Origin: Eledone cirrhosa
Lineage: Eukaryota
Assembly (NCBI GenBank): GCA_964016885.1
Contig: OZ024741.1
Span: forward strand, 290,408,001 to 290,472,000
DNA length: 64,000 nucleotides
Direction of reading: 5' to 3'
The notes beneath the pieces were generated by a model. The model saw only the letters and a list, made by a program, of their open reading frames with translations. It ran no database searches and had not been told where the DNA came from. Every line of letters begins with the position of its first letter. The stretch's first letter is position 1. Positions 8,394 through 9,207 of this stretch are shown here, one piece after another. The position numbers and the translations under genes are program-made.

Positions 8394-8437
8394 TATATAT
8401 ATATATACAGATAGAGAGAGAATTGAATTAGGATTTA

Positions 8438-8579
8438 CCGTCCTTGGGGACGCACCCTAATTTTAACAACCAAAAATTGGAAAAAAAATAATAAACAACC
8501 TTCGGCCTCCAGGACGCATGGTAGATTTTTGAGACTTATTTTAGGAAAAAAGTAGCGTCTTCGACGCCGGAAAATATGG
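8438..8579. mobile_element. Tc1/mariner-superfamily (Tc2/pogo-like) MITE with TA target duplication
   Basis: ggattTA[ccg...aaaatatgg]TAgcttc versus the empty site ggattTAgcttc at 8900-8911 in the paralogous unit. Right end gcgtcttcgacgccggaaaatatgg. Confidence 0.8.
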
Positions 8580-8720
8580 TAGCTTCATGCATAGCTGTAT
8601 ACAGATATGTATTGAAATTTCGTATTTCTAAAGAAATACGGTGTTTTTAGAAAGCCGTAGCTATGCAAAACACCGGGGATATCGCCCTCTGGTGATGTCC
8701 AGCAGAAGCAAGAGGGACAT

Positions 8721-8762
8721 TCGTCGATGCATTTCGAACTTAACTGGTTCTCATCAGGACGA
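8721..8762 (-). ncRNA. Intact minimal type I hammerhead ribozyme
   Basis: tcgtc-CTGATGA-gaac(cagttaa)gttc-GAA-ATGCAT-C-gacga: complete core, 5-bp stem I, 4-bp stem II, palindromic stem III, cleavage after AUC (8726/8725). Stem I is extended by pairing of 8697-8717 with 8763-8789. Confidence 0.88.
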
Positions 8763-9207
8763 TCCCTCAAACTCTTGCGACTGCTGGACTTGGAAACAGG
8801 CTAGAATATATGGTTTTCTCGTCTGTGTAAATGAGGTGATTAATCTCATTTGCATATGAAGCTGCATAAGATGGCTCAACTTATAATAGAATAGAATTAG
8901 GATTTAGCTTCATGCATAGCTGTATACAGATATGTATTGAAAGTTCGTATTTTTAAAGAAATACGGTATGTTTATAGATAAACATTTAGAAAGCCGTAGC
9001 TATGCAAAATATCAGGTTTATCACCCTCTGCTGGATACCACCAGAGGACAATGTTTTGCATAGCCCCGACAGCTAGATCCAACACTACTACCCTAAGTAT
9101 TGAGTACTCTGGTGCATTATGGTTCACCTGGTATCTTAGCACACTCTCTTTGTTATATATATATGTGTGTGTGTGCGCGCGCGCGGACGCGCGTGTGTGT
9201 GTGTGTA

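Follow-up and report, generated by a model that had tools for sequence, protein, structure and literature searches.

A dispersed hammerhead repeat with Penelope-like insertion features, and its junction with the 3' tail of a Penelope-like element, in the genome of Eledone cirrhosa

Metazoan non-LTR retrozymes, as described in the accessible parts of reports on coral, mussel and axolotl (PMC7229834; 10.64898/2026.07.22.740005), are non-coding head-to-tail units of 150-450 bp with a GC content below 50%, a type I hammerhead and a self-paired predicted circle; self-cleavage of the dimer in vitro and accumulation of monomeric circular RNA also belong to their definition, and monomer-rich families are on record. 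Penelope-like elements (PLEs) have been proposed as mobilisers of retrozymes on the basis of shared hammerheads and co-occurrence (PMC7229834), and a link through pLTR kinship has been drawn (10.64898/2026.07.22.740005). The pLTR fragments of EN+ PLEs show 5' truncation, partial tandems, a head-to-head arm, AT-rich or (TA)n targets, a hammerhead near the 3' end and a 30-40 bp one-ended tail (PMC8557442, PMC3846280, PMC11167929), the tail being a PLE signature (bioRxiv 2021.04.23.441226; PMC8557442; PMC11167929). It has been traced to two reverse-transcription start sites, and the PLE protein cuts and extends both strands, according to the accessible text of PMC11167929. A literature search, with most subscription papers and bioRxiv supplements outside its scope, returned no retrozyme report in octopus or other cephalopods and, within the same limits, no report of the repeat described below (family B) or of cross-family PLE chimeras.

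The window analysed here, a stretch of 64,000 nucleotides of E. cirrhosa DNA, contains an old copy of family B, a non-coding hammerhead repeat of about 338 bases that is dispersed in the genome, adjoining a piece of a different family, family A. The parts of the locus are as follows.

8419-8437, minus strand: tailed 3' terminus of family B, corresponding to the first ~16 nt of the next unit
8438-8579, no strand assigned: MITE-like insert, later than family B, with a duplicated TA at 8436-37 and 8580-81
8580-8904, minus strand: family B unit, copy 1, 325 nt, non-coding, GC 0.40
8697-8789, minus strand: long stem capped by the hammerhead, fold z -4.56
8721-8762, minus strand: canonical type I hammerhead motif with intact core, predicted cut at 8726/8725
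8905-9033, minus strand: family B copy 2, 5'-truncated and without a hammerhead, placed by sequence comparison
9027-9064, plus strand: stub of the family B inverted arm, in unit sense, with a 9-nt gap
9064-9080, minus strand: stub of the family A inverted arm, overlapping B by 1 nt
9079-9154, plus strand: 3' tail of family A (subfamily A1), terminating in (TA)n/(TG)n

Along the plus strand, the order is about 620 nt of antisense B including the MITE-like insert, 38 nt of sense B, 17 nt of antisense A, 74 nt of A tail, and (TA)n. The two elements stand head-to-head and point apart, each with its own outer 3' end, and at the junction the inner arms of both are without a primed end: the B stub lacks an outer 3' end expected ~65-70 nt beyond, and the A stub, which carries the same internal deletion as the free-standing copies L037 and L039, lacks the outer 16-18 nt and the (TA)n. 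Contigs in three sets, all from a single sample that may be the source of the assembly, cover positions 9020-9060 at the depth of the unique flanks, and among the listed pieces of these sets none was seen to cross the junction at 9064. The fold-back at 9027-9064 is present as originally described, and the family A piece described at 9064-9152 is borne out by matches of 91% to 6977-7052 and 84% to 55171-55243 of the window.

At the left border of the element, (GA)/(TA)n at 8361-8418 adjoins the B 3' terminus; the same terminus is present in most of the best 30 genome copies, and the terminus followed by (TA)n has 74 exact genome matches, a few of them counted twice. The extent first given to the element, 8419-9152, includes 8438-8579, which by sequence is no part of the family B unit, the true B 3' end lying at about 8419. 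The insert recurs free-standing at 91% identity, with both inverted ends, in another locus (L005:1130-1295); its own left inverted end carries an internal deletion. Short TA-flanked elements of this kind, with inverted ends of ~25 nt, are apparently abundant, and the insert is presumably of Tc1/pogo type.

What had been described as a complete minimal hammerhead is indeed present at 8721-8762 on the minus strand, but its sequence is of the canonical metazoan type I and not minimal. It comprises CUGAUGA at 8757-8751, GAAA at 8735-8732, C17 at 8726, a 4-bp stem II (8750-8747/8739-8736), a helix I of 5-6 bp and a helix III of 1 bp with a palindromic UGCA loop, the last as in the axolotl HHR_Amex1, to judge from the accessible description. 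This is the dimer-dependent metazoan type as defined in the accessible part of PMC4209133, and the B hammerhead is predicted to need a dimer in order to cut. A search of the window for CUGANGA..GAAA gave eight rows (six sites), among which, judged by eye, 8721-8762 alone has both a 4-bp stem II and a stem I. Two related CUGAUGA..GAAA motifs with a long stem II, at 34659 and 47616 on the minus strand of the window, likely belong to another PLE 3' end family.

The predicted folding of the unit is strong. The long stem at 8697-8789 is present as proposed; the linear unit folds with z -5.32 (0/100 shuffles as good), the circularised monomer, a check proposed at the outset, with z -4.5, and circular folds were predicted at z -2.1 to -4.8 in six of six B monomers (40 shuffles each). 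Three of the four self-complementary blocks originally listed pair in the predicted fold, gcatagct/agctatgc being unpaired there. Rfam gave nothing at gathering score for the locus and, at E<=10, chance-level non-hammerhead matches only, with no hammerhead. Both core boxes are kept in 27/64 aligned B copies. One stem II pair, scored in 57 of 71 hammerhead stretches, is A-U in 35, G-U in 9, G-C in 8 and something else in 5, and a divergent subfamily (L024, L318, L319, L326, L327, L337, L340) with an AUA cleavage triplet swaps further stem I and stem II pairs in a compensatory manner. Covariation over the whole structure is modest, with 20 cells against 10.8 +/- 2.7 in shuffled alignments and 21 in a slid control, on a measure of 21 pairs of which two were misregistered.

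A genome search with the B unit gave 3308 candidates, of which 40 were scored, with 68 matches; since all genome searches used exact motifs, diverged copies were missed. The proposed tandem unit of ~325 nt holds at the locus, where 8580 matches 8905 and copy 2 differs from copy 1 by 9 mismatches in 115 columns and a 14-nt indel, but in five natural two-hammerhead loci successive cut sites lie 336-340 nt apart, which is the period of the family, and on this comparison the 325 nt reflect a private deletion. The tandem search proposed for the unit found a unit start after a unit end 65 times, in arrays that stay below three units, two internal junctions occurring in one locus. Two-hammerhead loci number five exact ones and a few found by alignment, most with a changed core; those with two hammerheads are predicted to yield, by cleavage as dimers, ~338-nt monomers that circularise. 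The locus itself has one hammerhead, not the two consecutive complete ones by which the 2026 preprint recognises active copies, so that the 325-nt circle once expected from it cannot be cut out.

Family B thus has the sequence features of a non-LTR retrozyme, namely a non-coding head-to-tail unit within the described size range, no sign of an LTR-type body in the upstream flanks, a type I hammerhead, a GC of 0.36-0.40 in its monomers and a self-paired predicted circle. It differs from the retrozymes in the accessible descriptions in several respects: no long arrays were found; the family looks old, as its copies differ by about 10% pairwise; and its copies lie scattered and show inverted arms of PLE type and a tail at one end, which those descriptions do not report for retrozymes.

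The insertions of B resemble those of EN+ PLE fragments. B 3' ends fall at two fixed sites ~38 nt apart, with (TA)n after each, 5' ends are variable through 5' truncation, and an inverted arm is found in 17/61 loci (a set that leaves out L002, so that its count is one low). Of 46 head-to-head B insertions, classed by script and including one batch selected on the tailed end, both ends were scorable in 20 and not in 26; in every one of the 20, a tailed end is paired with a tail-less one. The one-ended tail is of the 30-40 bp length given for PLEs. Among 29 copies chosen by their 3' end alone, 18 cross the predicted cut site, none has its 5' end within 10 nt of it, and a pile-up of 5' ends there was looked for without success; cleaved linear monomers therefore did not serve as template, which leaves a circle or an uncleaved multimer, both compatible with the DNA. 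In L294 and L316 the inverted arm contains stretches that the opposite arm lacks, so these arms were primed separately. Family B was likely copied by a PLE enzyme, and its mobilisation by PLEs is a well-supported inference from these insertion features; the retrozyme-like, PLE-mobilised character originally proposed is upheld at the DNA level by the one-tailed insertions and by the unit context given below.

In the mechanism we propose, a PLE protein would nick both strands of a (TA)n and start cDNA synthesis at two sites of a single B RNA, either circular or multimeric and uncleaved, after which microhomology would join the two cDNAs. A non-coding hammerhead repeat with a PLE-specific insertion fingerprint offers more direct genomic evidence for PLE mobilisation, and the B insertions name two priming sites that are open to assay with purified PLE protein.

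Family A had been taken for a different Penelope-type family, which long copies of subfamily A2 bear out. Short hairpins lying in (TA)n, with a one-sided tail of ~75 nt, make up most A copies, and in most of the genomic copies the hairpin is folded at helix II and the core is lost; the long A2 copies lead from the 3' UTR into a reverse transcriptase (RT), followed by a CxCx5C linker and then a GIY-YIG domain that lacks CCHH. The translation of one of them (L206), read by eye, has RT motifs, the CxCx5C linker and, at the C-terminus, a GIY-YIG with flanking CxxC and CxH. Pfam recovered only the GIY-YIG (E 0.069), and a PDB sequence search with the A2 RT gave no match. A2 has 1428 exact motif matches, and A1, the subfamily in the window, shares its 3' structure. 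Family A is supported by sequence as the 3' end of a Hydra-type PLE, with the ORF known from A2; the ORF that lies 1.6 kb upstream of A1 in L208 was rejected as the A1 ORF, being part of another element. The A2 linker, the C-terminal GIY-YIG without CCHH and the (TA)n targets, motifs judged by eye, agree with the Hydra clade in the accessible part of PMC8557442, whereas the U3-A8-type core, the long helix III and the tail of about 75 nt set family A apart from that description. A canonical CUGANGA core was not found in family A, the core being a variant: the hammerhead-like three-way junction (L191:1440-1575, L160:1440-1575) combines a core of the U3-A8 type with a long helix III, and the window copies at 6830-7052 and 55039-55243 carry this region. 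A core covariant of the U3-A8 type is known from Schistosoma PLEs (PMC4209133, accessible part). No similarity was found between families A and B. Many PLE lineages occur in the genome, with 10,597 GIY-YIG candidates (among them L067-L096, L206 and L208) and several Hydra-type families; separate hammerhead-like motifs lie near L076, L093 and L096.

The B-A junction is most simply explained by a nested insertion and a deletion after it, a reading that we hold to be fairly likely. A Penelope-like reverse transcriptase would have inserted B, putatively first; A would have been inserted likewise into (TA)n beside the tail-less arm of B; a deletion of ~85-125 bp or more would then have taken the outer B arm together with the (TA)n and with 16-18 nt of the A arm, and the MITE-like element would later have split the B tail. 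The A part corresponds to free-standing 'arm + tail' copies (L037 and L039 share its internal gap) minus those 16-18 nt and (TA)n, and 8/29 A matches, in a sample enriched by the query, are free-standing copies of this kind with the leader that is missing at the locus. Three loci (L205, L260, L340) are undeleted look-alikes of the junction, and L384 shows the same kind of spacer loss in another element pair.

The expectation that other copies would be joined to A tails was not borne out by the searches run: all 26 other B-A neighbours keep a microsatellite spacer of (TA)n type, the locus being the only direct fusion found, and the junction is probably a local accident. The 26 are the sum of 2, 4, 11 and 7 from four pattern searches together with L109 and L260; in the set of 7, one duplicate pair was merged and one repeat dropped, and in a search with 23 matches, 12 were examined in full (11 of them B), one was the window itself and 10 were set aside as likely chance on their first 80 letters.

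A single co-insertion, in which two reverse transcriptases on opposite strands of one (TA)n copied two RNAs with microhomology hops, is a less likely origin, to which we would give perhaps a minority share. Divergences at the locus (8.1% between B and 27 relatives, 6.7% between the A tail and 29 relatives, beside the difference between the two B copies given above) indicate similar ages for B and A1, which allows co-insertion, and the 55 nt at the junction contain several short jumps, as in one complex repair event, with ATAGCCCCG both in the unit and at the joint; it is on the agreement of ages and these clustered jumps that co-insertion is kept. It also draws on purified PLE protein cutting and extending both strands, with a predicted dimer (PMC11167929, accessible part), and on pairs of family A with a further family, D, where 5/21 head-to-head neighbours are direct 5'-to-5' fusions (six counting L353) as opposed to 0/17 of plain head-to-tail cuts into D, an orientation contrast on small numbers with Fisher p 0.053, or 0.024 with L353. 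Yet the D-A fusions have no A arm, whereas here both elements keep arm stubs without primed ends; the A stub copies sequence absent from the locus, so that at least three primings would be needed; direct fusions number 0/26 among the other B-A neighbours; for PLEs, a later insertion is described as being joined at its 5' end, through microhomology, to DNA already in place (PMC3846280, accessible part); and A is joined to unrelated DNA likewise in L142 and L154. Nested insertion followed by deletion remains the preferred reading.

Direct head-to-head fusions of A 3' ends without (TA)n were seen with D at L274-L276, L278, L286, L287 and L354, and likewise with other PLE families at L138, L147, L131 and L132; the tail states in these fusions, judged by eye, are mixed. 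A defined 5' end of D at the fusion point was ruled out, as D continues upstream. From their sequence, these fusions are possible two-RNA insertion events, the rival being a later insertion joined to target DNA by microhomology, a joining that PMC3846280 describes in its accessible part for PLEs, together with the lack of cross-mobilisation in a rotifer. A general model, in which two PLE enzymes with two primers would load two different RNAs, either those of a retrozyme and a Hydra-type PLE or those of two PLE families, and insert them head-to-head in one site in a single event, is put forward tentatively, as something we rather doubt. If it is true, the B-A junction and the recurrent D-A fusions would be a genomic record of two-RNA insertion, and the one-tail rule that single-family insertions strictly follow would be a sign of priming on a single RNA. 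Such cross-family fusions bear on the origin of PLE inverted structures, which the accessible parts of the cited papers call unresolved.

It is improbable that family B is no more than the pLTR, or repeated 3' end, belonging to a coding PLE that is nearly always truncated before its ORF. This reading would account for insertion hallmarks identical to those of PLEs, long copies are rare enough for a parent bearing at least three terminal units to have escaped notice, and retrozymes are reported to derive from pLTRs (10.64898/2026.07.22.740005, accessible part). It is opposed by what lies upstream of the B unit start, which is a unit end 65 times and other letters twice, with no common upstream body on comparison of the 5' flanks of 61 B loci; by the longest arrays (L066, L032), which end in inverted arms or unrelated DNA; and by the long A copies, which by contrast readily reach their ORF. 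The locus has no ORF of at least 120 aa, no ORF was found upstream of the unit, and B was not the 3' end of any GIY-YIG locus among 30 examined of the 10,597 candidates. Family B lacks the RT plus GIY-YIG ORF between pLTRs that characterises an autonomous PLE and, unlike the EN+ PLEs in the accessible descriptions, has no ORF between its repeats and no coding parent that was found.

Least probable is the origin first suggested for the junction, a family A reverse transcriptase moving from A RNA to a retrozyme RNA. On the plus strand, 38 nt of sense B do abut A on its 5' side without a spacer, in the only direct fusion among 27 neighbours, but a template switch would leave one primed 3' end and colinear partners and so does not fit two elements in opposite orientations with two outer 3' ends. 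The main B body of ~620 nt runs against A and ends at 8419 in a canonical tailed 3' terminus of its own, folding back of a 38-nt cDNA could not yield 620 nt, and no colinear B-A fusion occurs in the 4 matches of one search or the 11 B matches of another.

Elsewhere in the window, Pfam gave no match above cut-off for ten ORFs, and the output of a window-wide repeat search was dominated by microsatellites. Multi-kilobase (TGG)n-type arrays and a 6.9-kb satellite of 11 nt occupy 12530-16735, 28732-30533 and 40024-46912. A perfect inverted repeat of 323 nt, at 10092-10414 and 11235-11557 with 820 nt between its copies, is possibly a young PLE with inverted arms, and 9270-9500 and 9590-9760 are an inverted pair of a very abundant short repeat common to many loci.
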